From assembly GCA_963816145.1 (NCBI GenBank), contig CAWFJP010000024.1, forward strand, positions 32,001 to 96,000: DNA of 64,000 nucleotides, in the 5' to 3' direction. A program made the translations under genes and the position numbers. Origin of the DNA: an uncultured delta proteobacterium. Its GTDB lineage: Bacteria; Desulfobacterota; Binatia; UBA9968. Shown in pieces: positions 47,375-61,527 of the stretch. Numbering within the stretch: the stretch's first letter is position 1; every line of letters begins with the position of its first letter. The notes beneath the pieces were generated by a model. It ran no database searches. It was not told the DNA's origin and worked only from the letters and a program-made list of their open reading frames with translations.

Positions 47375-47710
47375 CTAGCGCGCCACCTGCGCCTTGAGTT
47401 GGTTGAGCTCTTGTTGCTGCTGTTGGATCTGCGCTTGCTGCGCCGCCATCTGCTGCTGCAGCGATTGTTCTTGCTGCTGCCGCTCCTGCACTTGATTGCC
47501 GATCAAGGCGCCGCCGATCAGGCCGATGGCGGCGCCGATGCCGGCGCCGGCGCCGGCATGACCCGTCGCCGAGCCGATGATCGCGCCCAAACCTGCGCCG
47601 GTAAATGTGCCGATCGCCGCCCCCTTCTCCGTCGTCGAAAGCGGTTGCGAACAGCCGGCGAACACCAGAGCCAATAGGATTGCTGAAATCGTCATGAAAT
47701 TTTTACCCAT
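47375..47710 (-). CDS. Glycine-zipper lipoprotein
   Basis: VFAGC lipobox, GAAIG..GAGLGAIIG..GAGIGAAIG, Gln-rich coil; start MGKNF with an AGGAG RBS. Confidence 0.85.
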   Translation of the reverse strand: MGKNFMTISAILLALVFAGCSQPLSTTEKGAAIGTFTGAGLGAIIGSATGHAGAGAGIGAAIGLIGGALIGNQVQERQQQEQSLQQQMAAQQAQIQQQQQELNQLKAQVAR

Positions 47711-47753
47711 ACGTCGCTCCTTAAATTGTTTTAATCGCTGTGCCCCCGGCCGG

Positions 47754-47936
47754 TTGAACGACCCTCGGCTTAAAGTCGCGGGGTTCCGATGTCGTCGACT
47801 AGATGTCGACTCTTCCTTGTCGTCATTCCGGCGCAGGCCGGAATCCAGGTGACGGACAGCGTCCGTCATACCGTTGAAAAACGGTATCCAGATTCTGGGG
47901 GACAGGGGATGGACCCCGGTTTTCACCGGGGTGACG
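47754..47936 (-). repeat. Second copy of the 2763-2883 element plus another GTCAT-type palindrome pair
   Basis: Reverse complement of 47754-47850 aligns to 2763-2883 except for a 22-nt insert and a few small differences. Confidence 0.8.
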
Positions 47937-48030
47937 TTAGCCGCCGGCATGACCAACCTTCGCTTCGCCTGAAGGCGAGGGATTTCAACCACAACCGAAA
48001 GTAACATTCGCATCCATTCAATGAGCGAGT

Positions 48031-48472
48031 TCACTTTCCGCCGGCCGCTTTGGCGCGCTGCGGATGGAGTTCTTGAACCAGCGTGATCACGGCCTCGGCA
48101 AAATATTGCTTGCCGTTGGCCCGGCAGCCCTTTTCAAGCCGCGCCTTGATATCATCCATATTCAAGGTTCCCACCACATCATAAGTGTCTGACACGTATA
48201 GATTATGCGCCGTCACGAAAACCGGCGATCCAATGCTCGACGATTTTATCGACGATCTCGTAGAGTTCGTCTTTGGTATAACGCTCGTGGTTCTCGAGTG
48301 TCTCGAGCCGTTTCTCTCTAAACTTGATGTAATCATCACAGCTTCGCTGGCCAACGCCATAAGCAAAATATCGGCTGTTGCTATCGAGCGCGTAAAGCTC
48401 CGAACTCGCGACAACAACGAGCAGCAATATGCCGGTTAACATGCGCGTTGATTTCAAGATTGTTTTTGTCAT
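48031..48472 (-). CDS. Small secreted two-cysteine hypothetical protein (frameshift near 48220)
   Basis: Signal peptide; GVGQRSCDDY..HWIAGF joins VTAHNLY..CRANG across ORFs 48203..48511 and 48031..48417. Confidence 0.65.
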
Positions 48473-48529
48473 GGTCAGCATCCCCCTAAAGCATGCAAAT
48501 TTGTTTAGCAACGACTGTGTCGCAGTATC

Positions 48530-48875
48530 AAGGGACGAGTGTCGGGTGTCGAGGGAAAGAAATACAACTCGCCGGTCGACACTTCTTCACAGGAGGCAAC
48601 GGAGGAAACAGAGATTTTAAGAAAACCCTCCGTTGACTCCGTTTGCTCCTCTGTCGTACCGAGGGTCGAGGGTCGGGTGTCGAGGGAATGAAATACAACC
48701 CGCCGGTCGTCACTTCTTAACAGGAGGCAACGGAGGAAACAGAGATATTTTTAAACTCTCCGTTAACTTCGTTTGCTCCTGTTAGATAGGATTTCTCTTC
48801 ACTCGACCCTCGACACTCGACACTCGTCCCTCAATCTGCCCCTCGACACCCGACACTCTAACACTCTTTCACTCG
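48530..48875. repeat. Mosaic repeat cluster 1: two tandem ~131-bp units (heptamer tract plus ACAGGAG hairpin)
   Basis: Hairpins at 48589-48650 and 48719-48784; TCGAGGG/CACTCGA tracts around them. Confidence 0.9.
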
Positions 48876-48876
48876 T

Positions 48877-50187
48877 CTACTTTTCCCCCACCTCTTCCTG
48901 CGCCAACATTCCCATCACCTCGTCGGCGTAACGGTTGTGGCGTAACAGATTGGCCATCATTTTCATCGGCCGGTCGATATGTTTGAAAAATGCTTTGTAC
49001 CCCGCGCACAGATAATTGAGCCCCGGCTCGCCCTCCGGCGTGGTGATGAAACGGTTCTTGGGGCACTCGCCGTGACAGGCGAAGCGCACTTCGCACTGCC
49101 GGCAGTATTTCGGCAATGTGTCGCGCTTGTCTTGGCCGAATTTGATCTGCGCCGGCGAGGTTAAGAGCTCGATCATGTGGCTCTGTTGAATGTTGCCGAG
49201 TTTGTACGCAGGTTCGACGTAGTGGTCGCAGCTATAGAGGTCGCCGTTGTGCTCCAGGGCCAGTGCACCGCCGCAGGTCTCGGCGAAGATGCACACCGCG
49301 CCGGGCACGCCGAGCCAGTTGGCCAAAGCCGAGTCGAAATGCTGGACATAAATTTTGCCGACGTCGCGGCGCACCCATTCATCGAAGATGGCCATGAGAA
49401 ATTTCCCGAACGGCTCGGCCTGCACCGAACGGTCGGTGACCAGACTGCCTTCGATGGTGTAAAGCGGCCGGTCGCCGCCGGGACGCTCGCTCCAGCCTTG
49501 GTTGGCGATCGGCAGCATGGCGTCGCTGACGCGCTCGACGATCGGGATGAACTGGAGATACTGGGCGCCGAGTTCATCGCGGAAAAAATGGTAGAGTTCC
49601 AGCGGATGATTCTGATTGGCGGCGTGGACCGTGCACATAATGTTGAAATCGACGTTGTGCTTCTTGAGATTGTCCAAGCCGCGCATGACCTGGTCGAAGC
49701 TGCCTTCGCCGCCTTTGTTGACCCGGTAGGTGTCGTGGATTTCTCTCGGCCCGTCGACGCTCAAGCCGACGAGAAAGTTGTTTTTCTTGAAAAAAGCGCA
49801 AAGCTCGTCGTCGAGTTGGGTGCCGTTGGTCTGCACCGTATATTCGATCCGCTGGTGCGGCCGCTTGTACTTGTCGGCGTACTGCACCGACTTTTGAAAA
49901 AACTCCAAACCCATCAACGTCGGTTCACCGCCCTGCCAGGCGATAGTAACCTCCGGAGTCTGGTGACTTTCGAGCAACTGCTTGATGTAGGTCTCGAGCA
50001 GCTCATCCGCCATACGGAAGCGGCTGCCGGGATAAAGCATTTCTTTGGAAAGAAAAAAACAGTACTTGCAGTCGAGATTGCAGATCGCCCCGGTAGGCTT
50101 GGACAAAATGTGAAACGCCGGCGGCGCGTTCTTGGGCAGCGTCAGCCCGCTCGGGTCGCTTGCCGGCGAATTATTGGGATTGTTCAT
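48877..50187 (-). CDS. Anaerobic sulfatase maturase (radical SAM/SPASM)
   Basis: KPTGAICNLDCKYC, WQGGEPTL, YSCDHY, CRQC..CHGECPKNR. Confidence 0.95.
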   Translation of the reverse strand: MNNPNNSPASDPSGLTLPKNAPPAFHILSKPTGAICNLDCKYCFFLSKEMLYPGSRFRMADELLETYIKQLLESHQTPEVTIAWQGGEPTLMGLEFFQKSVQYADKYKRPHQRIEYTVQTNGTQLDDELCAFFKKNNFLVGLSVDGPREIHDTYRVNKGGEGSFDQVMRGLDNLKKHNVDFNIMCTVHAANQNHPLELYHFFRDELGAQYLQFIPIVERVSDAMLPIANQGWSERPGGDRPLYTIEGSLVTDRSVQAEPFGKFLMAIFDEWVRRDVGKIYVQHFDSALANWLGVPGAVCIFAETCGGALALEHNGDLYSCDHYVEPAYKLGNIQQSHMIELLTSPAQIKFGQDKRDTLPKYCRQCEVRFACHGECPKNRFITTPEGEPGLNYLCAGYKAFFKHIDRPMKMMANLLRHNRYADEVMGMLAQEEVGEK

Positions 50188-50229
50188 TGTGATGGCCTAT
50201 GGTCTGTGACATCAGTTGCCGATCTTTCG

Positions 50230-50657
50230 ATTTAACAGGAGCAAACCTGGAGGGATTTTACACAGGAGGTAACGAAGGTAACAGAGATTGATATTGCTAA
50301 GAATAACTCCTTTCCCTCTGTTTGCTCCTGTTCAAATCTCGATCTTCGTTATCTCCGTTGCCTCCTGTGATAAATTTCTTTTCCTCGTCTCCGGCTTGAT
50401 TCCGTCATCACCGGTTCGCTCCCGGCAGAAACAGCCGCGGTCTTCCTATTTAACAGGAGCAAACCTAGAGGGATTTTACACAGGAGGCAACGGAGGTAAC
50501 GGAGATTGATATTGCTAAGAATAACTCCGTTCCCTCTGTTTGCTCCTGTTCAAATCTCCGATCTTCGTTACTTCGTTTCCTCCTGTTAGAAATTTCTTCT
50601 TTCCCTCTTCTCCTGCTTGATTCGTCATCACCGGTTCGCTCCCGGCAAAAACAGCCG
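50230..50657. repeat. Mosaic repeat cluster 2: ~208-bp tandem duplication (50230-50437, 50448-50657)
   Basis: Each copy has four ACAGGAG-family arms plus the last 30 nt of the GxxExxY gene. Confidence 0.92.
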
Positions 50658-51029
50658 ATGAACGCCGTTCGTCAATTTCATTTCGTGAAAGTTTATCAGC
50701 AATCCAACCGGCACATTGAGAAGCTTCATGTAACTCAATAATTGCGCTTTGTGGATCGGCAGAATCTTTTCGACAGCCTTTGCTTCGACCAAAACGCAGC
50801 CGTCCACGAGCAGATCAAAACGTAACAGATCCTCCCGCGTGAAACCCTTGTACTCGATCGACACACCCCGCTGACTCACAAAAGGCAGACCCCGCAATTC
50901 GAGCTCTTTCGTCAGGCACCACTCGTAGATAGACTCCATCAAACCCGGACCTTTGTCGCGATGCACTTCGATGGCCGCGCCAATGATAACCTCGGTCAGG
51001 CCGTATGCTTTTTCGTACAGGAAATGCAT
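50628..51029 (-). CDS. GxxExxY protein (PD-(D/E)xK nuclease fold)
   Basis: IIGAAIEVHRDKGPGLMESIYE, RFDLLV..VEAKAV, AQLLSYMKL..GLLINF; likely start MHFLY at 51029. Confidence 0.95.
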   Translation of the reverse strand: MHFLYEKAYGLTEVIIGAAIEVHRDKGPGLMESIYEWCLTKELELRGLPFVSQRGVSIEYKGFTREDLLRFDLLVDGCVLVEAKAVEKILPIHKAQLLSYMKLLNVPVGLLINFHEMKLTNGVHRLFLPGANR

Positions 51030-51038
51030 CACTGATCT

Positions 51039-51155
51039 AACAGGAGGTAACGGAGGAAACGGAGCTTCCCCAAAAAACCATCCCATCTCTGTTACCTCCG
51101 TTAACTCCGTTTGCTCCTGTTCAAATGAATTCCCTCTTCACTCCACACCCGACAC
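51039..51155. repeat. Mosaic repeat cluster 3
   Basis: AACAGGAGGTAACGGAGGAAACGGAG..CTCTGTTACCTCCGTTAACTCCGTTTGCTCCTGTT, then CTCTTCACTCCACACCCGACAC. Confidence 0.9.
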
Positions 51156-51159
51156 TTTT

Positions 51160-52128
51160 CTACTTCTTCCGCACGATGCAGCGAATGCCGATATGACTCA
51201 TGCCGGTGTCGATCATCTGCGGTTGGCGCGCCGCCGGGCGATAACGCAAGCAATAGTTGGGCGCGCATAAGTGCGAACCGCCTTTGACGACTTTGCGCGG
51301 AATACGAAATTGCGGTTGTGCCGGATCGTAGCTTTTATCCGGCGATTCGATGCGCGGATTGACCGCCGGGCCGCAGCAGGGTTTGACGACTTCGTCGGCG
51401 CGCCGCGGCACGAACCAGTCGCAGGTCCATTCCCACACGTTGCCGGCCATGTCATAAAGCCCATAACCGTTAGCCGGAAAGCTTCCGACCGGAGAAGTTC
51501 CCTCGTAGCCGTCGAGTAATTTGTTCTGCCAAGGAAATTCTCCCTGCCAACTATTGGCCATCGCCTTGCCGCCGGGAAAATCCTCATCGCCCCAGGTGAA
51601 CTTCTTGCCGTCAAGGCCGCCGCGCGCGGCAAATTCCCACTCCGCTTCAGTCGGCAGGTTTTTGCCGGCCCAGCCGGCATAGGCCTCGGCGTCTTCGTAG
51701 GCGACGTGAACCACCGGGTGTTGCTCGATACCGTCAAGTGAAGAGCCTGGCCCGAACGGGTGGCGCCAGCTCGTGCCCGGCGCCCAGACCCACCAGTTGG
51801 CGTAGTTTTTTAAATCGACCGCGCCGGCGGTTTTGTGAAACAACATCGAGCCCGGCACCAAATTCTCCACCGGCGCGCCGGGAAAGTCCGCGGCATTGAG
51901 CGGGCGCTCGGCAAGCGTGACGTAACCGGTCGCGGCGACAAAGCGCGCAAACTGCTCGTTGGTCACCGTGTAGCGGTCGATCCAGAAACCGTCGACACTG
52001 ACCTCGTGTACCGGACGTTCTTCCGGGTAGAAATCTTCCGACCCCATGCGAAAAGTCCCGCCCGGAATCCAGACCATGTTGGGATGCGGCGCAGCATCAG
52101 GTTGGCTGACTGACGTTATTGTGTTCAT
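51160..52128 (-). CDS. Formylglycine-generating enzyme (FGE)
   Basis: IPGGTFRMGS, LPTEAEWEFAARGG, GLYDMAGNVWEW, KGGSHLCAPNYCLRYR with the catalytic cysteines. Confidence 0.95.
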   Translation of the reverse strand: MNTITSVSQPDAAPHPNMVWIPGGTFRMGSEDFYPEERPVHEVSVDGFWIDRYTVTNEQFARFVAATGYVTLAERPLNAADFPGAPVENLVPGSMLFHKTAGAVDLKNYANWWVWAPGTSWRHPFGPGSSLDGIEQHPVVHVAYEDAEAYAGWAGKNLPTEAEWEFAARGGLDGKKFTWGDEDFPGGKAMANSWQGEFPWQNKLLDGYEGTSPVGSFPANGYGLYDMAGNVWEWTCDWFVPRRADEVVKPCCGPAVNPRIESPDKSYDPAQPQFRIPRKVVKGGSHLCAPNYCLRYRPAARQPQMIDTGMSHIGIRCIVRKK

Positions 52129-52152
52129 GGACCACCTCTTAAAATCAAATTG

Positions 52153-52550
52153 AACAGGAGTTCAGAGAGGCAAACAATACGGATTTTGCACAGGAGGTAA
52201 CGGAGAGAACCGAGATATATTTCTTAAAGACAAACTCTGTTTGCTCCGTTTGCTCCTGTTTAAAATTCATTTCTGATATTTCAATTGCCTCCTGTTAAAT
52301 TGAATCCCTCTTAACTCGACCCTCGACACTCGTCACTCGTCACTTCTTCACAGGAGCTAACAGAGCAAACAGAGTTTAGTTAGATTCGTCTCCGTTCTCT
52401 CCGTTGCCTCCTGTTCAATTGAATCTCTCTTCACTCGACCCTCGACACTCGTCCCTCGACACTCGCCTCTTCTTCACAGGAGCTAACAGAGGAAACAGAG
52501 TTTAACAAAATTCTTTTGGGTTCCCTCCGTTGTCTCTGTTTGCTCCGGTT
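52153..52550. repeat. Mosaic repeat cluster 4: three hairpin units separated by heptamer tracts
   Basis: Units at 52153-52296, 52350-52415 and 52476-52550. Confidence 0.9.
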
Positions 52551-53830
52551 CAAAATTTACTCTCTCGTGCCGCTGATGGCAGGTCCTTGCACCGCGAGGC
52601 ATCGAACACCACCTGGTCATACCACCACAAGCGCTCGAAGAGGGCGCGCGCGGTGTCGCGCTGACCGCGCGCACCGGCGATCTCGCCGGCGGAACGCGTG
52701 CCGTCGATCGCATCGAAGATTTTTTTCTGCTGCGCGTCGATCGGCAAGTAAAGGTCGGTGTAGCTGTGGCTCCGATTGATCAGCACCGCGGCGGCACCGG
52801 GCGGCAGCCGCTCTTGAACGCAGATCGTCGCCGACATGCGAATCGGCACATAGCCAAGCCAGGCGTCACCGGTAAAACTGATCGGTTGCCGGTCGCCAGG
52901 AACATCATCACGGTAAACGACCGCGCTGTGGCGCACCATCGTGCCGCGAAACAGTTCCACCGCGGCATACTGCTCTGCCAACGGAAGCTCTGCCAGCCGG
53001 GCCGCCTGCGGGATATTAGCGATCACGCCGCAACCAGGGCTGTAGGGAGCTTGTCTGATCCAGCGACCGAAGCCCAGTGCTCCGCGATTGATGAAATCGA
53101 AAAATTGCGCCACCGAATACGCGCGGTCTTGCGGGTGCAATAGCGCGTCGGCGAGCGCCGCCTCGTGCCGAAACTCCGGTGCTTCGCGCAGCAGGTTTCC
53201 CAGCGGATGCCCGGGTGGCAGCGCCTTGAGCGCGGCGCTGAGATCGCGAATCCCGTCATCGGTGGCGGAGATGCCGAGCCGCCGGCAAAACTCCTGCAGC
53301 ATATAGATACCGGTGCGTCCGTACGGCGCGTACACCATAAGATGCATCGCGCCCTCCGGTTTGAGTACATCGCGCAGAGCTCTGAGCCCTGCGTCAGGGT
53401 CGGCAAGATGATGCAGCACTCCGGTGCAGACGATCTGATCGAAATTCTTTGCCAGTTCTTGTACCCGCTCGACGGCAAGCTGATGGACCTGGAGATTTTC
53501 TAATTTGTATTTGCGTTTAAGTTCCTCGGTACAGCGCACACTGGTTGCGCTGAAGTCGACGCCGGTGACCTGAGCCTCGGGCCAGCGCATGGCATGCTTG
53601 GCCGCCTGCGAGGTGCCGCAGCCGGCAATCAAGATTGAGTAATCTTCCCGAAACGATCGAGCGGGCCAAAACAGATGGTAGTCCGCGCGGCGCTTTTGTC
53701 GGTCCTGCCAAAGCTGCCGATATTTTTCCAGACTGTCGATCGGCCGTGGATAAGGATAGCGCTCGTAGAAATCCCGGACTTCCTCGTCCACGGCAACTAA
53801 AGTCGAAGGATTTTTTTCTTGCCGGCTCAT
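52550..53830 (-). CDS. Class I SAM-dependent methyltransferase
   Basis: VRDFYERYPYP, ILIAGCGT, FDQIVCTGVLHHL, LMVYAPYGR. Confidence 0.9.
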   Translation of the reverse strand: MSRQEKNPSTLVAVDEEVRDFYERYPYPRPIDSLEKYRQLWQDRQKRRADYHLFWPARSFREDYSILIAGCGTSQAAKHAMRWPEAQVTGVDFSATSVRCTEELKRKYKLENLQVHQLAVERVQELAKNFDQIVCTGVLHHLADPDAGLRALRDVLKPEGAMHLMVYAPYGRTGIYMLQEFCRRLGISATDDGIRDLSAALKALPPGHPLGNLLREAPEFRHEAALADALLHPQDRAYSVAQFFDFINRGALGFGRWIRQAPYSPGCGVIANIPQAARLAELPLAEQYAAVELFRGTMVRHSAVVYRDDVPGDRQPISFTGDAWLGYVPIRMSATICVQERLPPGAAAVLINRSHSYTDLYLPIDAQQKKIFDAIDGTRSAGEIAGARGQRDTARALFERLWWYDQVVFDASRCKDLPSAARESKF

Positions 53831-53902
53831 GGGGACTTTCCAAGCAATTTATAAGTATGACGCCAGTTCATGAGAAAATCCCTCCCAACCTCCCTTTGCC
53901 AA

Positions 53903-54034
53903 GAGGCTGTGTCGCAACTGTCATTCCGAGGTGAAGCCGAGGAATCTCTTCTTCGTATGTGGCTGAAAATACGAGATCCCTCGCTCCGCTCGGGATGACA
54001 GATGTGGGGCATTTGCGCATTGCGACACAGCCTC
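53903..54034. mobile_element. 132-bp MITE with perfect 15-bp TIRs and a 3-bp CAA target duplication
   Basis: GAGGCTGTGTCGCAA (53903-53917) / TTGCGACACAGCCTC (54020-54034); CAA on both sides. Confidence 0.85.
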
Positions 54035-54074
54035 CAAAGGGAGGCGGAACTCCCCCTCTTTAGCAAAGAGGGGC

Positions 54075-54248
54075 CAGTGTGCCGACCCAAAAGTTCGCTA
54101 CATAATTCATCCGTCATTCCGGGCAAGCTGGCGATCGCTAGCGCGACGCGGAATCCAGGACAATCGCGAACCTGGATGCCGGCCTTCTCCGGCATGACGA
54201 TATCAGGCCGTCCGCCTTGTTTTGCGAACCTCTGGACCACGACACTAG
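54075..54248. mobile_element. Second MITE-like insert with imperfect TIRs
   Basis: CAGTGTGCCGACCCAAAAGTTCGC / GCGAACCTCTGGACCACGACACTAG; internal GTCATTCCGG..GGCATGAC pair; splits GAGGGGC|GGGAGATTT. Confidence 0.55.
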
Positions 54249-54356
54249 GGGAGATTTTTGAATTTGGCATCCAACCAATGTTCCTATGTGTCACCAACAG
54301 GTTCAACGTCTGTGTTACGGCAGCGGTCGTCTGGTAATCGGCGCATTAGAGTTATT

Positions 54357-54764
54357 TCACAGCAGAACGATGTCCCCGATTATCGTGACCAAAAGTATCG
54401 CCCCAAGCAAGAAAATCACGCCGGCCATCTGAAAATTCGGGTTGCTAAAGACGCTCTCTTTCCGGCCCAATCTCTTCAAGGTCCGGTAATATTGAATCAT
54501 CATGACAAACAAGGGGACGGTTCCCGCCACCAGCATGAAGAGCGCGACATTCCTTGGCGTCTCAGGCCGAATTAGTTTCGTGGAAGTATGCTCAAGCACG
54601 TAGCGGAGCACATTGAATATCGTGAAACCGAAGCCGATAAACGACAACGATGTGCGCACGCCGGCAAGCATGGTCCGGTCCGCCGCTAAAACCGTTCGTT
54701 CAACCGCAAGCTTGTCGCTCAGGTGAAGGTCTTCGGGCTTAATTCCGTTCTCTTCCATTGCCAA
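54357..54764 (-). CDS. DUF202/YidH family membrane protein
   Basis: LAADRTMLAGVRTSLSFIGFGF. Confidence 0.88.
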   Translation of the reverse strand: MAMEENGIKPEDLHLSDKLAVERTVLAADRTMLAGVRTSLSFIGFGFTIFNVLRYVLEHTSTKLIRPETPRNVALFMLVAGTVPLFVMMIQYYRTLKRLGRKESVFSNPNFQMAGVIFLLGAILLVTIIGDIVLL

Positions 54765-54842
54765 TCCCGATGGTGGTGAGCGACTGACTGATTTGGTTTG
54801 TATCCATGTTTAATTTCAAATTGTTAAAAGTTTTACTGGCTT

Positions 54843-56747
54843 TCACTTGTTTACGTTCGAAAGATTACTCTCATTGAGCGCAGCCAATCCCTTTGCGTGC
54901 TCGCGCAAAATTCGTTTGACCTCGAGGATCGTTTCGGGATTCCCCTGGACCGAGTGTCCGGATCGAATAATCTTTTCCGACTCGACGCCGTCGATATGCG
55001 CGCTCATATATTTCACCACCCCGTCGCCCGCTTCATCGAGCGGCGCGTCGCTGTTCACGGCGATGATCGAGTTCGCTGTGACGCCATCGGCGATCGGGAT
55101 GGCGATTAAATTTTTGATAAAGGTATTGTTCGGGTTCATGTTATCGATACTGGTCGGGATACCGGACACCGAGCCGAGAAATACTCCCTCTTTTTGAAGA
55201 GTCAGCAGGTCGACGCTCAGTTTGGTAAGCCGGCCCGGAAGATTTACCAGCCACGAACCTATAGCGCCGAGAATTCCCAGCGCCTGATAACTGCCTCGAT
55301 GCGGCGTGGCGACAAAGACGACACGCTTGACGAACGGCAGCGGTTTGAGAATCAACCCGCGGGTCAACGTCTCCCGAGTTTCGGCTCTGACATCGAGTTC
55401 ATCGGGAGAAACGCTGAAAGGCCAAAGACCCATGCCGCTGTCGATGGCGGTCATCTTGGTCAGCAACCCACCTTGGCTATGACCCATGACAATCATCTGT
55501 TTCAGGCCAGGATCTTTTCCCTCTGGATCAATATCCGCTATGGTTTGAATTAGGGCGTCGCGCAAAAGCATCGCCGAGTAGGCGATCGGGTTCCCCGTGT
55601 TGTAAACAAAAAACCAGAGATCGAATCTGTTGAAGAGCTGAGGATCATTGCCTACTTCGTTCACCAACTCCGCCCACCGCGCGGGGCTGGAGGCGGTTCC
55701 ATGCACGAGCACCACCGGAATATGGCCGTAACGGTGGGGACCAAACATGAAAAGGCCGTCTCCCGATCGTGTTAAGCTAAAATCGCCGGAGCGAAATCCG
55801 GCGAATTCAAAATCCCAGACGGGCGAACCTTCCAGCGTATCGGCCAGGGCGGATGATATTTCGTATTCAATGGGCACGTCAACGTTGTTAACCTTTACCG
55901 TCCTTGCGGAGTCGGGATTGTAGAGCTCCAAGTGGCCGGTGAGTTTTCCCGATACGAGATCGCCGCGAGCATCGTCATAGCGGAGAAAAGCGGCAACCGG
56001 AATTTTCATTCTTACAGGGATGCGTTTGTATTGCGCGCTGGCCAACGATCCCACCGGTTCGAGTGCGGCCACCAGCGGCGCTCCGACGCCAGGCTCACGG
56101 TAACGATTACGCAGTCCGCGGACCTCCAGCTCTGCGGCGGAAACAAAGTCTTTAAGCCGGAATCCCGTCCACAGCAAATCTTGCTCGTCGAAGGTGACGG
56201 TCAATTCCCCGAACGGCAGAACAAACTGACCGCCTTTCAACACAACGTGCTCGCCGTCGTCTGCGGTCAACCCTCTGGCCAACCCCCGATTCAAAATGTC
56301 TACTGCCCAGCGGGTTCGCGGGTCAATGGCTCTGGGCGGCGTGCCATTCTTTCCCGGCAGGAGAAAGGCCGACGCATACGCCGTCGCGGCAAGGTAATAA
56401 GACCGGTCGCCGCTATTCTCCGCATAGAGAAATGAAAGCTCGGCAAGGGCGAAGACGCGCTCCTCATCGCCGGTGGGTGCCAAACCCTTATGCAACTTGG
56501 CGAGCGCTTCTTTGGGATCATTGTCGAACAGCTCGTAGAGGCCTAGATTGAGCAGTTGCCGGGAAGAAAAGGAACTGGGCTTGTCGGTGTTCAGCGCATT
56601 GGCGGTGAGATCATACTGGGCTGTGCGCGGATCCACTCGGGTTACGCCGATGGGCGTGACGCAACCGGAAGCGACGAGCGCAATGCAACTTGCCAGCAGC
56701 GCCCAGCATCTTAACCGCCGTAAAATTATCTTTGATCCTTCAGACAT
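54843..56747 (-). CDS. Alpha/beta hydrolase lipoprotein (esterase/lipase-like)
   Basis: VASGC lipobox, PVVLVHGTASS, GHSQGG nucleophile elbow, ATPHRGS, GDGVV, RSGHS. Confidence 0.88.
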   Translation of the reverse strand: MSEGSKIILRRLRCWALLASCIALVASGCVTPIGVTRVDPRTAQYDLTANALNTDKPSSFSSRQLLNLGLYELFDNDPKEALAKLHKGLAPTGDEERVFALAELSFLYAENSGDRSYYLAATAYASAFLLPGKNGTPPRAIDPRTRWAVDILNRGLARGLTADDGEHVVLKGGQFVLPFGELTVTFDEQDLLWTGFRLKDFVSAAELEVRGLRNRYREPGVGAPLVAALEPVGSLASAQYKRIPVRMKIPVAAFLRYDDARGDLVSGKLTGHLELYNPDSARTVKVNNVDVPIEYEISSALADTLEGSPVWDFEFAGFRSGDFSLTRSGDGLFMFGPHRYGHIPVVLVHGTASSPARWAELVNEVGNDPQLFNRFDLWFFVYNTGNPIAYSAMLLRDALIQTIADIDPEGKDPGLKQMIVMGHSQGGLLTKMTAIDSGMGLWPFSVSPDELDVRAETRETLTRGLILKPLPFVKRVVFVATPHRGSYQALGILGAIGSWLVNLPGRLTKLSVDLLTLQKEGVFLGSVSGIPTSIDNMNPNNTFIKNLIAIPIADGVTANSIIAVNSDAPLDEAGDGVVKYMSAHIDGVESEKIIRSGHSVQGNPETILEVKRILREHAKGLAALNESNLSNVNK

Positions 56748-57028
56748 TCGTGATTCTCCTATGTCGCTTCTCCGTTCATCGCCTCGGGCAAGGGATACGG
56801 CTCTCGGTTTTGCCGAGCCGGCTTCGTCGCAAGTCGCACTGACTTGGCAGGGTCCGAAACACGGTCATCGGCAATTATTTTAGTTTGCCTGTGGCTTTCA
56901 TGTTCTTGCAGGCGGTTTTGCTGGCTGCATCCGGTCGGTGTTCGATTGACCGCCGGGTTGCTTTTTATGGGTCATCGCGTAATCGAGTGGGCGCTGACTT
57001 AATGGCAAATTACTCTTCCATGGCCGGT

Positions 57029-57127
57029 TCCTCCCTTTCGCAAAGGGAGGTTAGGAGGGATTTTTCATGGCTTGAAAGATCGTCTTCTGGACAAAATCCC
57101 CCCAACCCCCCTTTTCTAAAGGGGGGT
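57029..57127. repeat. Paired CCCTTT-N-AAAGGG palindromic repeat
   Basis: CCTCCCTTTCGCAAAGGGAGGTTAGGAGGGATTT..AAATCCCCCCAACCCCCCTTTTCTAAAGGGGGG; uninterrupted relative of 53876-54258. Confidence 0.75.
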
Positions 57128-57232
57128 GAAACCTACAAGAACAGCATTTCTCAACAAATTTCACCCACTCGATTACGCGAAGAGCCCTTTTTATTTTGTC
57201 CGTACCCATCAGCCCGCTTGCGCGCTTCCCTT

Positions 57233-57529
57233 TCAGTGCGCGCGTAGGGATGCGACGAGACTCAGCAGATTTTCCGGCTGCACGTGAATAATGCCGCCGC
57301 GCGGGCTATCGATGTCCGCGATAGAGAAAGAACGAGATCGACACGAAAATCCGACGATGAGTGCGAGCAGCGTCAGCGTAGCGCCCAGGATGATGCCGAA
57401 GTCTTCACGCTTGTCTTCTTCCCACTTCAGCAGCCGCCGCAAAACGTTCGCCCCTATCGGCACCGAAAGCGATAAGACGACTAAAGAAATCACGAATACA
57501 AGCAGCGGATAGTCCGATACCTTGATCAT
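57233..57529 (-). pseudogene. Internally deleted DUF4239-like gene
   Basis: N-terminal GATLTLLALIVGFS joined almost directly to C-terminal IADIDSPRGGIIHVQPENL; only 98 aa. Confidence 0.65.
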
Positions 57530-57683
57530 TGGGTCCTCGCGAGTTGGTAATTCAGCGAATCCTATCAGCCCGCTTTGATCGCCCTAAGCTCCACGACGCG
57601 TTCATCGACCAGCCATGAACTCCCAGCGTGAGAGTGTCTGACGTTTCAAAAGGCAGCGCTATCACTTTTGGTTTTTACCGCGG

Positions 57684-57718
57684 ATCCCCCCGGCGGACTC
57701 CTTGTCCGCCCGGGGGAT
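57684..57718. terminator. Strong hairpin downstream of the arylsulfatase
   Basis: ATCCCCCCGGCGGAC-TCCTT-GTCCGCCCGGGGGAT; T-run only on the + side, so orientation is unclear. Confidence 0.4.
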
Positions 57719-57820
57719 TTTGCTCATTCTGCGAGCCTAAGCGAAGCAGCCATGAACGGATCGTGCAGTCAGTGCGCAGGACAGCTGACCGCGACTAAAT
57801 CCCTCGCGCGCCCGCCGGGG

Positions 57821-59350
57821 TCAGGAATGACCATGACTCGTCACCTGCGCCAGCACCGCATCCAGGTTGAACGAAGCGGGTTTCTGCCGCGGCGGGAACT
57901 TGGCGAAGTCCGCGATCTGCCCCGCTATCAGCGCCTGCATCTGGTACATCTGGGGCACGTGATCGACCATCCAGTCCAGGTAGGTATTCGAATTGACCTC
58001 GGCCCGCTCGAACGGGTCGCGGCGGAGGTTCATTATATACGGCAGCCGAAGCTTCACGAACGGCTCGGCCCACTGTCTCATCGTATTGGCGCGTTGTTCC
58101 GCCAAATGAAACTTATAGTCGCCGATCCGCACCGCGATGACTTCTCCGTCGTCGCTGAAGTACACGATGGCGTTTCTCGGGCTCTCCTTCACCGCGCCGG
58201 TCAGGTAAGGGATCTGGTTGTAGCCGTCGAGATGGACCTTGTAGGTCATGTCACCGACCTTGTAGCCGTTGAGGAGCTTCTGCGTGACGTCCGGATCGCC
58301 GGCGGCAGCCAGCAGCGTCGGCATCATGTCGATGTGCGAGACGATCCCGTTCAGGACCGATCCGGCTGGGATCTTGCCCGGCCAGCGCATAAAGCACGGC
58401 ACGCGCCAGCCGCCTTCCCAGTTGGAGTCCTTCTGGCCGCGGAACGGGGTGTTGGCGCCGTCCGGCCAGGTGTCGTTCTCCGGACCGTTGTCGGTGGAGT
58501 ACATGACGATGGTGTTGTCGGCGATGCCCAGCTCGTCGAGCTTGTCGAGCATCTGGCCGATCTGTTCGTCGTGCACGACCATCCGATCGCTGTAGGGATC
58601 CTGCCCGCTCTTGCCGAGATTCTTCGCGGCGACGTGGGTGCGAAAGTGCATGGCCGTCGAGTTGTACCAGAGGAAGAACGGCTTGTCGGCTTTGGCTTGT
58701 TTCTCCATCCAAGCGATCGCGGCGTCAGTGATCTCTTCGTCGACGGTTTCCATGCGCTTCTTGGTCAGGGGACCGGTGTCCTGGACCTTCTGCTTGCCCA
58801 CCCGGCCCCAGCGCGGTTCTTCAGTCGGGTCGTCTGTGTCCGTCGCCCACGAGTGGAGCACGCCGCGCGGCCCGAACTTCTTTTTGAATTCCGGATCCTT
58901 GGGATAGTCGGGCAATTCCGGTTCTTCCTCGGCGTTCAGGTGATAGAGATTGCCGAAGAACTCGTCGAAGCCATGCACGGTCGGCAGGAATTCGTTGCGG
59001 TCGCCCAGATGGTTCTTACCGAACTGGCCGGTGACGTAGCCGAGCGGCTTGAGCATTTCAGCGATGGTCGGGTCTTCCTTCTGCAGGCCGACGGTGGCAC
59101 CGGGCATGCCGACCTTGGTCAGGCCCGTGCGGATCGGGTTTTGCCCGGTGATGAAGCACGCCCGGCCGGCGGTGCAACTCTGTTGGGCGTAGTAGTCGGT
59201 GAAGGTGACCCCTTCCTTCGCCACGCGGTCGATGTTAGGGGTCTGGTAACCCATCATGCCGCGGCTGAAGTGGCTGACGTTCCATATGCCGATGTCATCG
59301 CCCCAGAGGATAAGAATGTTGGGCTTTTTGTCAGCTTTTGCTTGTGCCAT
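57821..59350 (-). CDS. Cys-type arylsulfatase
   Basis: PNILILWGDDIG, QQSCTAGRACF (CxAxR), GQFGKNHLG, STDNG, WEGGWRVP. Confidence 0.95.
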   Translation of the reverse strand: MAQAKADKKPNILILWGDDIGIWNVSHFSRGMMGYQTPNIDRVAKEGVTFTDYYAQQSCTAGRACFITGQNPIRTGLTKVGMPGATVGLQKEDPTIAEMLKPLGYVTGQFGKNHLGDRNEFLPTVHGFDEFFGNLYHLNAEEEPELPDYPKDPEFKKKFGPRGVLHSWATDTDDPTEEPRWGRVGKQKVQDTGPLTKKRMETVDEEITDAAIAWMEKQAKADKPFFLWYNSTAMHFRTHVAAKNLGKSGQDPYSDRMVVHDEQIGQMLDKLDELGIADNTIVMYSTDNGPENDTWPDGANTPFRGQKDSNWEGGWRVPCFMRWPGKIPAGSVLNGIVSHIDMMPTLLAAAGDPDVTQKLLNGYKVGDMTYKVHLDGYNQIPYLTGAVKESPRNAIVYFSDDGEVIAVRIGDYKFHLAEQRANTMRQWAEPFVKLRLPYIMNLRRDPFERAEVNSNTYLDWMVDHVPQMYQMQALIAGQIADFAKFPPRQKPASFNLDAVLAQVTSHGHS

Positions 59351-59453
59351 TTGTTAGCTCCTTTCTGTTTCCTAAACCGTTGGTATTTAAAGTCATCAAA
59401 ACCGTCGCCACTTAACAGTAGACAACCGAGGCAACAATGGTTTTCATATGAAT

Positions 59454-60125
59454 TCTCCGTTAACTCTGACCGCTCCTGCTAAATTGCCCGCTCTCCTCTC
59501 GACACTTGAAAATAAAAACTCGCTTCCAATCCTTTTTCATATCCACTACCGGACAGTTGCGCGTATCTCCGTTATCTCCGTTTCCTCCTGTAAAAAATCC
59601 GAAGCGAGACGAGGGACGTGGGGTCGGGTGTCTAGGGAGGGGAAATTCTCTCGCCACTCGACACTTCTCACCTCGACACTCGTGCGTCACTCGTCTCTTT
59701 CTAACAGAAGCTAACAGAGGAAACAGAGTTTTCTTCAAAACAGTGAATTCGATCCATCCCGTTTGGAGCATTGTATTTGTTTTTCATCATTTTGAATTTG
59801 TTTCGAGCTTCGTGCTTCGGATTTAGTGCTTTCAAAATTGCAAATTCTTTGGCTAGCTTTACACTCACGATCTTCGCGTTACTTCACCAATTCGAAATTG
59901 AACGGCCGTCGGGTCGTTTTCGAACCATGATATTTTTCAGGAGGCAACGGAGGGAACAGAGGTTTCCTGAAAAATACCTCCGTTAACTCTGTTTGCTCCT
60001 GTGAAGTACCGAGGGCCAAGTGTCGAGGGGAAGCTAACAGCAACATCAACTCACTTCATTCCTTGCTCTCTGTGCCCAGCATTTTCACTCGACACTCTTC
60101 CCTCGACACTTTTTTTCACTCGACA
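59454..60125. repeat. Mosaic repeat cluster 5
   Basis: ACAGGAG-family arms at about 59454, 59567 and 59703, a hairpin at 59938-60002, heptamer tracts, and a partial copy of the 15074 repeat at 59734-59832. Confidence 0.85.
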
Positions 60126-60139
60126 TCCATCAATCCCGG

Positions 60140-61336
60140 TCATGCCAGATCTTCCACAAGTCGTGGAATTTCCTGCCAGGGGACAGCAGTAATCTTCGCG
60201 GTGATCTTGAACTGCCGCGGCGTTCGACAAACAACCACCGCCGTTTTCGCTTTGGAATACTCGGACAGGAAAGTTTGCAGATGCCGCGTGTCTCGTTCGG
60301 TCGGCGCATCGCTCCACTTTACTTCCACCGGTAACCAGTGGTCATCTGTCACCACCACCCAATCCACTTCGGGTCCATCCGGATCCCGCCAAAACCGGAG
60401 CCCCGAGTTGTCTTTGGCCTGCCGGGTCGCGCGCAGCAGTTCCAGCCCAACAAACTGCTCAAAGATTGCGCCAAGCACGCGCACCGGCAGCCGGGGGCCT
60501 TCATCCGCGGCGGCTCGGCGCACGCCTAGGTCGAAGAACAAGTAACGAGGTGACTTAGTAAGCTTTTTCCTGGTGCGACTCTCGGACAACGCCTCAATCC
60601 GCTCGGCAATCAGGCAATCCTCTAGGATTTCGTAATAGCCCGCTACCGTGGTGTGGGGCACGCCGAGTTCCTGCGCGATGCCGCGAAAATGGCTGATTCC
60701 GCCAGCCTCGAGCGCAGCCAGTTGTAGAAACCGCGCGAACATACCTAAATTGCGCACCAGCGCCTCGGCGCGTACTTCCTCCTCTAGGTACAGCGTCGTA
60801 TAGGCGCGCAGATCCTCTTCCCGCGCCGCGGCGTCGCCGGCCAACGCGATACCCGGCAGGCTGCCATACAGCAACCCTTCTTCGAGCGTCGGCGGAACCC
60901 GCTCGGCGAGCGACAGGGGATCCAGCCGCAGTGGCACCAGGCGGCCCGGCAGCAAATTAACTCCGCCGCCGCGCCGCAGCTTGCGCGCCGACGAACCGGT
61001 CAGAATAAACCGCGCCACCTTCCTATCGATCAGATCTTGCACCACGTTCACCAGTTCGGGGACGCGCTGAACTTCGTCCAGCGCGACCAGCGCTCGGCCG
61101 CCGCGCCGGCGTTCGCCGAGCGCCTCCACTTCCGCGCCCAGCAGCTGCGGCGCGCGCTCGTAACGCTGGCGCACTTCCGGCCGAAGAAAGTTGAGTAGCA
61201 GATCCGGTTGGAGTGGCTGCAACAAGGTCGTCTTGCCGGTCTGGCGCGGGCCGAGCAGGAGCACGGACTTCTGCCGCTGCAACACTTGGCGAATGCGCGA
61301 CTCGATGATTCGAGGGAGGATTTCCATGCCCACCAT
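60140..61336 (-). CDS. AAA_14 ATPase with DUF4143 domain
   Basis: GPRQTGKTT, LDEVQRVP, FILTGSSARKL, YLFFDLG, FWRD..EVD..EVKW. Confidence 0.92.
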   Translation of the reverse strand: MVGMEILPRIIESRIRQVLQRQKSVLLLGPRQTGKTTLLQPLQPDLLLNFLRPEVRQRYERAPQLLGAEVEALGERRRGGRALVALDEVQRVPELVNVVQDLIDRKVARFILTGSSARKLRRGGGVNLLPGRLVPLRLDPLSLAERVPPTLEEGLLYGSLPGIALAGDAAAREEDLRAYTTLYLEEEVRAEALVRNLGMFARFLQLAALEAGGISHFRGIAQELGVPHTTVAGYYEILEDCLIAERIEALSESRTRKKLTKSPRYLFFDLGVRRAAADEGPRLPVRVLGAIFEQFVGLELLRATRQAKDNSGLRFWRDPDGPEVDWVVVTDDHWLPVEVKWSDAPTERDTRHLQTFLSEYSKAKTAVVVCRTPRQFKITAKITAVPWQEIPRLVEDLA

Positions 61337-61391
61337 ATTCGGCGAATTTGGAGCTTTGTCAATCCCGCCTGCAACCTGCCCGTTCAGAACG

Positions 61392-61527
61392 GAGGGTCGG
61401 GGATCGAGGGGAAAAGGACCGCAGTTTCCCTTCTCCGCTTTCCGCGCTGTGTCCCTTGCTTTTCACTCGACACTCTTCCTCGCCACTCGACACTTTCTGC
61501 CCCTCGCCACCCGACCCTCGTCCCTCA
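61392..61527. repeat. Heptamer (TCGAGGG/CACTCGA) repeat cluster 6
   Basis: GAGGGTCGGGGATCGAGGGGAA..TTTTCACTCGACACTCTTCC, in the same orientation as 60011-60123. Confidence 0.8.

Follow-up and report, generated by a model that had tools for sequence, protein, structure and literature searches.

The locus and its hairpin repeats

The stretch of DNA analysed here (64,000 nucleotides, referred to as the window) derives from the genome of an uncultured delta proteobacterium and carries a gene for a 133-aa GxxExxY protein, a predicted PD-(D/E)xK nuclease. The gene is surrounded by short repeats, here called arms, each composed of about three 7-mer units at 8-9-nt spacing, which in the window read ACAGGAG, AACRGAG and AACRGAG. 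Two inverted arms form an element of about 65-80 bp, and the family as a whole is referred to as the AACNGAG family. An earlier note on this DNA had counted about 25 arms, arranged as inverted pairs that fill four intergenic gaps from 48.5 to 52.6 kb, recur at 59.4-60.0 kb, are absent from the first 48 kb and bracket the GxxExxY gene. It had further proposed the protein as the partner of the repeats, an analogue of REP and RAYT with a different enzyme.

The description was borne out. When CAGGAGnnAACnGAGnnAACnGAG was used as the arm search pattern with up to 2 mismatches, 23 matches were found in the window, corresponding to 22 non-overlapping arms, and none of the 100 dinucleotide-preserving shuffles of the window that served as control contained any match. 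Several weaker arms, such as 50563-50590, raise the total to about 25. All matches are located at 48590-52548 and 59455-60001, and none was found in the first 48 kb at this threshold. The arms occupy the four gaps of a minus-strand array consisting of a methyltransferase-like gene, an FGE-like gene, the GxxExxY gene, the anSME gene and the next gene, and reappear in a 790-nt gap at 59.35-60.14 kb. The inverted pairing was also confirmed, with loops of 13-32 nt in the 24 AACNGAG hairpins identified across the genome, and the intact TIGR04256 gene is flanked by arms on both sides. It sits between the outer ends of two adjacent elements and not in a loop. Besides this position of the gene, three further properties had escaped the earlier note: arrays of a second heptad, CTCGACN, the presence of 131-bp and 218-bp tandem duplications, and the confinement of the family to three contigs. 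The features of the locus are as follows.

50628..51029, minus strand: GxxExxY gene, 133 aa, predicted PD-(D/E)xK nuclease, the single cognate gene of the AACNGAG family (TIGR04256)
51041..51119, no strand: AACNGAG hairpin immediately before the GxxExxY start, with the outer end of the left arm next to the gene; fold as single-stranded DNA -19 to -21 kcal/mol, z about -6
50220..50657, no strand: 218-bp tandem duplication (copies 50220-50437 and 50438-50657); repeat families D4 (93%) and D18 (97%)
48525..48860, no strand: gap downstream of anSME with two 131-bp composite units, then more heptad arrays (D11, 90% identity, 131-nt spacing)
52191..52548, no strand: three AACNGAG hairpins (52191-52258, 52351-52413, 52477-52548) with heptad arrays between them, in the gap between the FGE-like and methyltransferase-like genes
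59416..60132, no strand: second cluster, with solo arms (59455-59478, 59567-59590, 59705-59728), a hairpin (59938-60001) and heptad arrays
48877..50187, minus strand: anaerobic sulfatase maturase anSME (context; TIGR03942, 487 bits)
51160..52128, minus strand: FGE/sulfatase-modifying-factor-like gene (context; partial NCBIfam matches to FGE-domain families, GldK and EgtB, all under cut-offs; the name FGE comes from the earlier note, not from a Pfam match)
52550-53830, minus strand: methyltransferase-like gene of the same array (context)

Each copy of the 218-bp duplication contains one hairpin (50263-50330 and 50481-50548) and one solo arm (50344-50367 and 50563-50590). The duplication includes the last ~35 nt of the GxxExxY gene, which leaves a 12-aa echo in tblastn at 50411-50446. 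This tandem duplication of a hairpin together with a solo arm indicates that the repeats expand by local duplication too. In each 131-bp composite unit, an inverted pair of heptad arrays comes first and an AACNGAG hairpin (48590-48651 and 48721-48781) after it. The second cluster lies downstream of a sulfatase gene, and no GxxExxY remnant was found in it by tblastn.

The assignment of the 133-aa open reading frame (ORF) is unambiguous at the level of family, with 133 bits against TIGR04256 (cut-off 35), an E value of 5.9e-39 and 115 of 116 profile positions covered. In an alignment of 80 homologous sequences, G29, E32, Y35, D72, E82 and K84 are invariant, representing the GxxExxY motif and a D...ExK core, and the catalytic residues of the window protein are intact. 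The AlphaFold2 model (pLDDT 96.8, pTM 0.89) points to a PD-(D/E)xK nuclease with a Cas4-like fold. Its best Foldseek match in the PDB is Cas4 SSO0001 (prob 1.00, TMq 0.59, E 1.5e-3), followed by another Cas4, lambda-type exonucleases, LHK-Exo and Hjc, with splicing endonucleases weaker. No Foldseek match in the PDB reached E <= 0.001, and a sequence search of the PDB revealed no relative of solved structure. The homodimer prediction gave a score of 0.01 and was counted neither way.

Five genes and five repeat families in one genome

The assembly comprises 7.82 Mb in 31 contigs, with an estimated contamination of 6.7%. At up to 2 mismatches, the AACNGAG family has 60 arms in the genome, distributed over three contigs only (27 on C23, 24 on C24 and 9 on C9). 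Five GxxExxY genes were found, of which only one, that of the window, lies within this family. A genome-wide map was one of three computational checks suggested by the earlier note, and like the other two, on flanks and on relatives, it favoured the proposal: the other four genes are each flanked by a family of their own. All five have tandem-unit inverted repeats of the same construction on either side, about three 7-mers at 8-9-nt spacing, and the motif differs from gene to gene: CACGAAG, CACAGAG, CGCCAAG, CGCAAAG and AACGGAG. At up to 5 mismatches in 26, the CACGAAG family has 180 arms, CACAGAG 17, CGCCAAG 24 and CGCAAAG 17, spread over many contigs; with all five families included (up to 5 mismatches in 25-26), the range is 17-180 arms. 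Searches of the genome by tblastn revealed no further GxxExxY copies or fragments beyond the five genes and the 12-aa duplicated tail, which is also all that was found on C23, C24 and C9 besides the window gene. It can be seen that the rule is one gene and many repeats.

The CACGAAG family illustrates this rule best. It comprises 48 elements, 39 of which have a loop of 26-29 nt sharing an inner palindrome, and in a single element the "loop" measures 403 nt and is the GxxExxY gene. The uniformity of the short loops suggests that gene-less copies multiply as such and do not arise by independent deletions. With ORFs called crudely, 250 of 298 arms lie outside them, and arms are rarer in gaps between divergent genes (22/250, 8.8%) than expected from the number of such gaps (1017/5885, 17%). 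The genome also contains 7 Y1/IS200-like (Y1_Tnp) genes. None of the 7 is flanked by these repeat families, and one CACGAAG arm lies 1.4 kb from such a gene. No direct-repeat signal indicative of target-site duplication was found above shuffled partners at offsets 0-15 and k = 3-8 in 47 and 24 elements. Long-range arm pairs were considered as carriers of cargo and rejected, as most of them are adjacent hairpins around ordinary genes.

Linkage of gene and repeat in other genomes

The linkage was examined from both directions. Starting from the protein, 80 GxxExxY loci were taken from many phyla and 79 were analysed, one having too short a flank; the threshold for a flanking inverted repeat was the maximum of 40 shuffles. 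The earlier note had proposed comparing the flanks of many GxxExxY genes, and genes of this family are generally flanked by repeats: 69 of the 79 loci exceed the threshold, 62 of these with a score of at least 30. The loci span the Planctomycetota-Verrucomicrobiota-Chlamydiota (PVC) phyla, Acidobacteriota, Chloroflexota, Gemmatimonadota, Proteobacteria, Bacteroidota and others. Their arms consist of 2-4 tandem units (CACAGAG, CGCAGAG, CACGGAG, CACATAG, AACGAAG and others), and the median distances between arms and protein match are 36 and 26 nt. In 55 loci the repeat pair encloses the gene, in 5 the gene is outside it, and 9 are mixed. In a separate set of 11 GxxExxY loci, 8 pass the flanking-repeat test. 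Additionally, 7 of the 80 matches contain in-frame stops (L156, L167, L186, L217 and three more; there are three stops in L186 at least), a sign that decaying copies are common.

Starting from the repeat, exact matches to the arm pattern were sought in 185,579 species genomes, and at least 120 foreign loci, amounting to 867 kb, were obtained. The matches listed (at least 120) come mostly from metagenome-assembled genomes (MAGs) of Planctomycetota and Verrucomicrobiota, together with Adhaeretor mobilis and a Horticoccus isolate. GxxExxY ORFs were sought in these loci with a local profile built from five paralogs. Among the matches listed, 5 such ORFs were found, and all 5 are within 0-42 nt of an arm and have arms of opposite type, left and right, on their two sides. 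The four full-length foreign proteins are 70-78% identical to that of the window and the fifth, which is internally deleted, 62%; compared with the paralogs of its own genome, the window protein shows 27-56% identity. Five large PVC genomes contain 10-30 arms each, against 0 for a reversed-pattern control, and 4 of the 5 encode a protein 61-77% identical to the window's.

In Adhaeretor mobilis the cognate gene is present only in truncated form, next to one of 16 arms. The same genome holds 14 arms of a GCAGAG family and 29 of the CGCAAAG family. Two adjacent GCAGAG-family arm pairs are located at C1:5262709-5263176 and 5264975-5265462, one enclosing an intact GxxExxY gene and the other enclosing fragments that appear frameshifted.

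Viral contigs contain only 2 relatives, at 37-38% identity, which suggests that phages are not an obvious vehicle.

Co-variation of protein and repeat

Motif type tracks the relatedness of the proteins. Across 58 loci, protein identity and arm similarity are correlated (Mantel/Spearman r = 0.33), and none of 500 permutations gave a value as high. A quick maximum-likelihood tree was built from 63 proteins, 58 of them from loci that combine strong repeats with clean ORFs and the other five from this genome; 7 broken ORFs and loci without strong repeats were left out. The window protein belongs to a 17-row clade (96% support), every member of which has ACAG[G/A]AG-type arms and which holds all such arms. 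Within this clade, one subclade (94% support) has AACGGAG and its sister subclades AACGAAG, in every unit of both arms. Over the whole tree, the unit labels require 31 changes, compared with at least 36 (mean 40.8) in 300 shuffles, a figure to be read with the tree being poorly resolved outside the 17-row clade and related rows not being independent.

Relatives of the organism were compared in the same way. Among 30 relatives (18 of the same genus), 25 have no arms at up to 1 mismatch and 5 have 1-3, compared with 50 in this genome; with one unpublished genome set aside, the figure is 4 of 29 relatives with 1-3 arms. None of the 30 encodes a protein at least 60% identical to the window's GxxExxY protein, the best being 57%. 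The earlier note had named equal abundance of the repeat in related genomes lacking the gene as evidence that would tell against a partnership, and the relatives show the reverse. As these relatives are distant, the shortage of arms fits co-acquisition as well as dependence on the gene. No syntenic locus was found in the 30 relatives; coding DNA of the locus is ~68% identical, and anSME and FGE are not adjacent.

Folding and pairing of the arms

As single-stranded DNA, the AACNGAG pairs fold into three helices of 7-8 bp with 2x2 internal loops between them (dG -8 to -21 kcal/mol, z -2.1 to -6.1). The spacers between units show no co-variation that would keep them paired. Among the 24 AACNGAG hairpins, 13.5% of spacer dinucleotides are complementary, compared with 30% with shuffled partners, and matching at the second spacer of 47 CACGAAG hairpins amounts to 6% and 9%, compared with 43% and 39%, with none of 1000 permutations as low. 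This implies that each element has two types of arm, giving either a conserved 2x2 mismatch when folded or an asymmetry between left and right ends. This argues for recognition by a protein over plain stability of the stem.

The consensus of the hairpin 3' flank is TTaAAaa. An Rfam search in E-value mode over 47500-61500 found no family, the sole matches being two to miRNAs at chance level (E 0.23 and 0.99). A role as intrinsic terminators was rejected: 6 terminator-like sites were found (5.4 expected), none coincides with a hairpin, and there is no tail of T-run type. Logan contigs covering the locus are short and broken at repeats, and none spans the whole stretch. Where these contigs join arm to arm, the sides are short (20-44 nt) or foreign letters intervene; such joints probably stem from other copies or organisms and were not used. 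Two of the sources, one of them RNA, leave 50704-50991 uncovered, which was counted neither way.

Other repeat-flanked genes and repeats

A second gene family shows a similar arrangement. Ten TIGR02436 genes or fragments (Avd-like four-helix-bundle proteins, PF05635) were found in the genome, and for 7 of them the flanks hold inverted repeats built from tandem 7-9-nt units (AGGCAAT, AAGGGT, CGTTCAA and others). These repeat-flanked genes, all in this genome and outside the window, are located as follows.

C31:553051, repeat-flanked TIGR02436 gene
C11:340850, repeat-flanked TIGR02436 gene
C15:203406, repeat-flanked TIGR02436 gene
C15:185557, repeat-flanked TIGR02436 gene
C11:62964, repeat-flanked TIGR02436 gene
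C11:381450, repeat-flanked TIGR02436 gene
C31:434743, repeat-flanked TIGR02436 gene

A strict de novo census gave ~20 gene-less hairpins of GTTCAA type and ~40 of GTTCCA type. At C11:241886-242420, an unassigned 178-aa ORF lies inside tandem-unit arms of CGTTCCA type and may represent a third kind of enclosed gene.

The heptad CTCGACN arrays (GTCGAGN on the other strand) form inverted pairs of their own, which are interleaved with and abut many AACNGAG hairpins. In the genome, 23 of 26 exact matches are on C23, C24 and C9. In the window they are found at the following positions.

48525-48560, heptad CTCGACN array
48656-48690, heptad CTCGACN array
48796-48860, heptad CTCGACN array
52310-52345, heptad CTCGACN array
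52428-52470, heptad CTCGACN array
59619-59692, heptad CTCGACN array
60011-60132, heptad CTCGACN array
61392-61495, heptad CTCGACN array

In 119 foreign loci with the heptad pattern, no four-helix-bundle or GxxExxY ORF adjoins an array, and the arrays were rejected for now as the repeat family of a four-helix-bundle gene.

Several other observations concern the surroundings of the locus. Two other multicopy sequences, at 47755-48008 and 53890-54000 of the window, recur at 83-97% identity across the genome and in relatives of the same genus, one of the two being located within an OmpA-like/glycine-zipper ORF. At 53875-53902 and 57037-57064, 3.1 kb apart, there is an inverted pair of 28 nt (93%). 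The best matches of anSME are mixed, from Acidobacteriota and Chloroflexota at 70-75%. A single ORF at C23:23269-24699 carries mechanosensitive-channel domains together with the C-terminal two thirds of a sulfatase, which could reflect a gene fusion or a broken pair of genes that the crude ORF calling ran together.

Interpretation and alternatives

Comparison of sequences from independent genomes indicates that the partnership of gene and repeat is real and general across phyla, and the cognate link is well supported. The partner role proposed in the earlier note is likewise supported, by comparative evidence. On balance, it is probable that the GxxExxY gene and the hairpins constitute a cognate pair of REPIN-RAYT type built on a different enzyme. 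One copy per genome would carry or abut the single GxxExxY gene, which encodes a small predicted PD-(D/E)xK nuclease and, at the 69 of 79 loci with inverted repeats, belongs to no known transposase class. The protein would read the repeated unit sequence-specifically, on folded or duplex arms, and would be needed for gene-less copies to multiply or persist in intergenic DNA. More speculatively, a nick or break at the hairpin or cruciform might be followed by repair-templated copying.

Several points weigh against this interpretation. The support is comparative, and binding, cleavage and copying by the protein are putative; most of the sequences come from MAGs. A passenger gene co-inherited with the repeats would give the same co-variation, and 10 of the 79 loci have no flanking repeat above the shuffles. 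We know of no PD-(D/E)xK protein that transposes DNA alone. The non-catalytic TIGR02436 proteins share the architecture, which weakens the notion that a nuclease copies the repeats, and the GxxExxY enzyme may not be what copies them. The variable positions of the two arms show no co-variation that preserves pairing, and the orientation bias of the hairpins relative to flanking genes runs opposite in two families. Furthermore, the AACNGAG family is restricted to three contigs, two of which (C23 and C24) the other four families almost avoid (1 of 238 arms), so that the confinement could mean an island acquired with the repeats already in place. A large acquired island is a possible cause of this confinement; the shift in composition is mild, and tetranucleotide principal component analysis was not decisive on foreign origin. 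Contamination as the cause was rejected, as C24 shares other multicopy repeats with many contigs of the genome at 83-97% identity.

This sharing also bears on the simplest alternative, that the link is incidental, small genes and hairpins having piled up in permissive intergenic DNA and the cluster being an acquired island or a binning artefact. The three-contig distribution, the contamination estimate and the mild composition shift would fit it; however, the linkage was recovered from both the repeat and the protein in independent genomes of many phyla, and this, together with the clade-concerted unit changes, largely refutes an incidental link, which is highly improbable. It is rather unlikely, with more in its favour, that the system is a tiny insertion sequence-like unit (inverted repeat, gene, inverted repeat) moved by an unlinked enzyme, with the hairpins as derivatives resembling miniature inverted-repeat transposable elements (MITEs) and GxxExxY as cargo, for instance a defence or addiction nuclease. 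The repeat pair does enclose the gene at 55 of 79 loci, one foreign copy has an internal deletion, Y1 transposase genes are present in the genome, and the unrelated four-helix-bundle genes sit within repeat pairs of this kind, as cargo would. However, no other gene lies inside the pair, arms flank 0 of the 7 Y1 genes, target-site duplications were not found in the elements searched, and each family has one gene copy against 17-180 arms. Every unit, moreover, changes together with the protein clade, a pattern for which a passenger has no need.

Two further explanations are distinctly improbable. In one, the hairpins came first, as host or older repeats, and GxxExxY acts as a free-standing homing endonuclease: it would cleave its cognate hairpin at the centre and insert a copy of its own gene into the loop. 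The gene takes the place of the loop at most loci (55/79), protein type matches site type, and a symmetric site suits a PD-(D/E)xK dimer. Such an enzyme should nevertheless be reconciled with only one occupied hairpin per family (1 of 48 CACGAAG elements, for example), with no AACNGAG loop being occupied here and the window gene lying outside the neighbouring elements, with arms of ~25 nt, which are very short homology for repair, and with relatives that lack the gene also lacking the sites. In the other, the hairpins act in RNA, as signals for processing, stability or translation within operons, and GxxExxY is an RNA-binding or RNA-cutting factor with sequence specificity for them, or is enclosed in a stem as in 23S rRNA intervening sequences. 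Hairpins located between co-directional genes of an operon-like array, the depletion of arms in divergent gaps and the splicing endonucleases among the weak fold matches agree with this, as do RNA-library contigs over 51040-51124 and 52322-52578, a weak sign of transcription because DNA may be present in the library. The sense strand folds better in 17 of 21 AACNGAG hairpins; however, it folds worse in 23 of 32 CACGAAG hairpins. Compensatory changes between arms, an Rfam family and a terminator-like tail were all lacking in the searches described above, and the best fold matches are DNA nucleases.

Comparison with known systems

The cognate pair proposed here resembles REPIN-RAYT systems in several respects: short palindromic repeats that belong to one family and border a single-copy gene, many gene-less intergenic copies, repeat type matched to gene type, no target duplications found, and imperfect stems with conserved mismatches. 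The differences are equally clear. The protein is of the PD-(D/E)xK type (TIGR04256) and not an HUH/Y1 transposase, the arms are about three tandem 7-mer units and not a simple palindrome, and the gene is usually inside the repeat pair. REPIN-RAYT (TnpA-REP) is described as mostly vertically inherited (10.1101/2021.07.10.451892, PMC8266576), whereas the subtype of the window is 70-78% identical across phyla, which suggests horizontal spread. Because the protein is not a Y1 transposase, the GxxExxY system falls outside REPIN-RAYT as defined; it is like REPIN-RAYT in genomic logic.

MITEs and their parent insertion sequences share the terminal inverted repeats and the excess of short gene-less derivatives over the gene-bearing copy, but here there is no target-site duplication, no transposase of a known class, and one gene copy per family. 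ORF-bearing 23S rRNA intervening sequences occur in Leptospira and Coxiella, and to our knowledge dispersed gene-less families are not part of their description. These intervening sequences (PF05635/TIGR02436, Avd-like) also place a small ORF within an inverted repeat able to form a long stem (PMC10053308); the elements here are intergenic, not in rRNA, and involve another protein family. In Geobacter metallireducens, Aklujkar et al. 2009 described paired tandem octa- and heptanucleotide sites as putative binding sites of a global regulator (PMC2700814). Like the arms, these are intergenic and multicopy, with 4-5 tandem units of 7-8 nt in opposite-strand pairs at variable distance; they differ in motif and in being read as regulator sites, with no tie to GxxExxY or to a flanked gene in the text available. 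Cas4 and RecB-type PD-(D/E)xK nucleases (4ic1, 4r5q) are the best structural matches of the model and have the same D...ExK core, but the GxxExxY protein is half their size, has no CRISPR context and no Fe-S cysteines seen in the alignment, and the Foldseek E value is only 1.5e-3.

PF13366 (PDDEXK_3) was listed by Steczkiewicz 2012 as a family of unknown function with multiple transfers (PMC3424549). In the literature searched, which did not extend to subscription journals, GxxExxY was mentioned only in passing. Within the same limits, searches on REPIN/RAYT with an endonuclease, ORF-bearing rRNA intervening sequences and Geobacter multicopy sequences revealed no description of a link between GxxExxY and repeats.

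Significance

It is possible, and is suggested only tentatively, that GxxExxY proteins represent a widespread and unrecognised class of bacterial repeat replicators, in which a nuclease of ~125 aa reads 7-mer arrays by a simple, evolvable code and drives the spread of gene-less hairpins, and that a parallel Avd-like class makes ORF-bearing 23S rRNA intervening sequences one special case. Such a code, if true, would explain the switches of whole arrays from AACGGAG to AACGAAG with the protein clade. The unit arrays and concerted motif switches suggest a compact sequence-reading nuclease whose specificity may be decodable from natural pairs, and the cultured strain Adhaeretor mobilis HG15A2, which has intact pairs, makes experiments feasible. 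The link to GxxExxY offers an explanation for a class of repeats found between genes in many phyla. It also places a second example, with a different mechanism, beside REPIN-RAYT, the only well-studied partnership of gene and repeat in bacteria. For the large GxxExxY/PDDEXK_3 family itself, a cognate dispersed repeat family would represent the first testable function.

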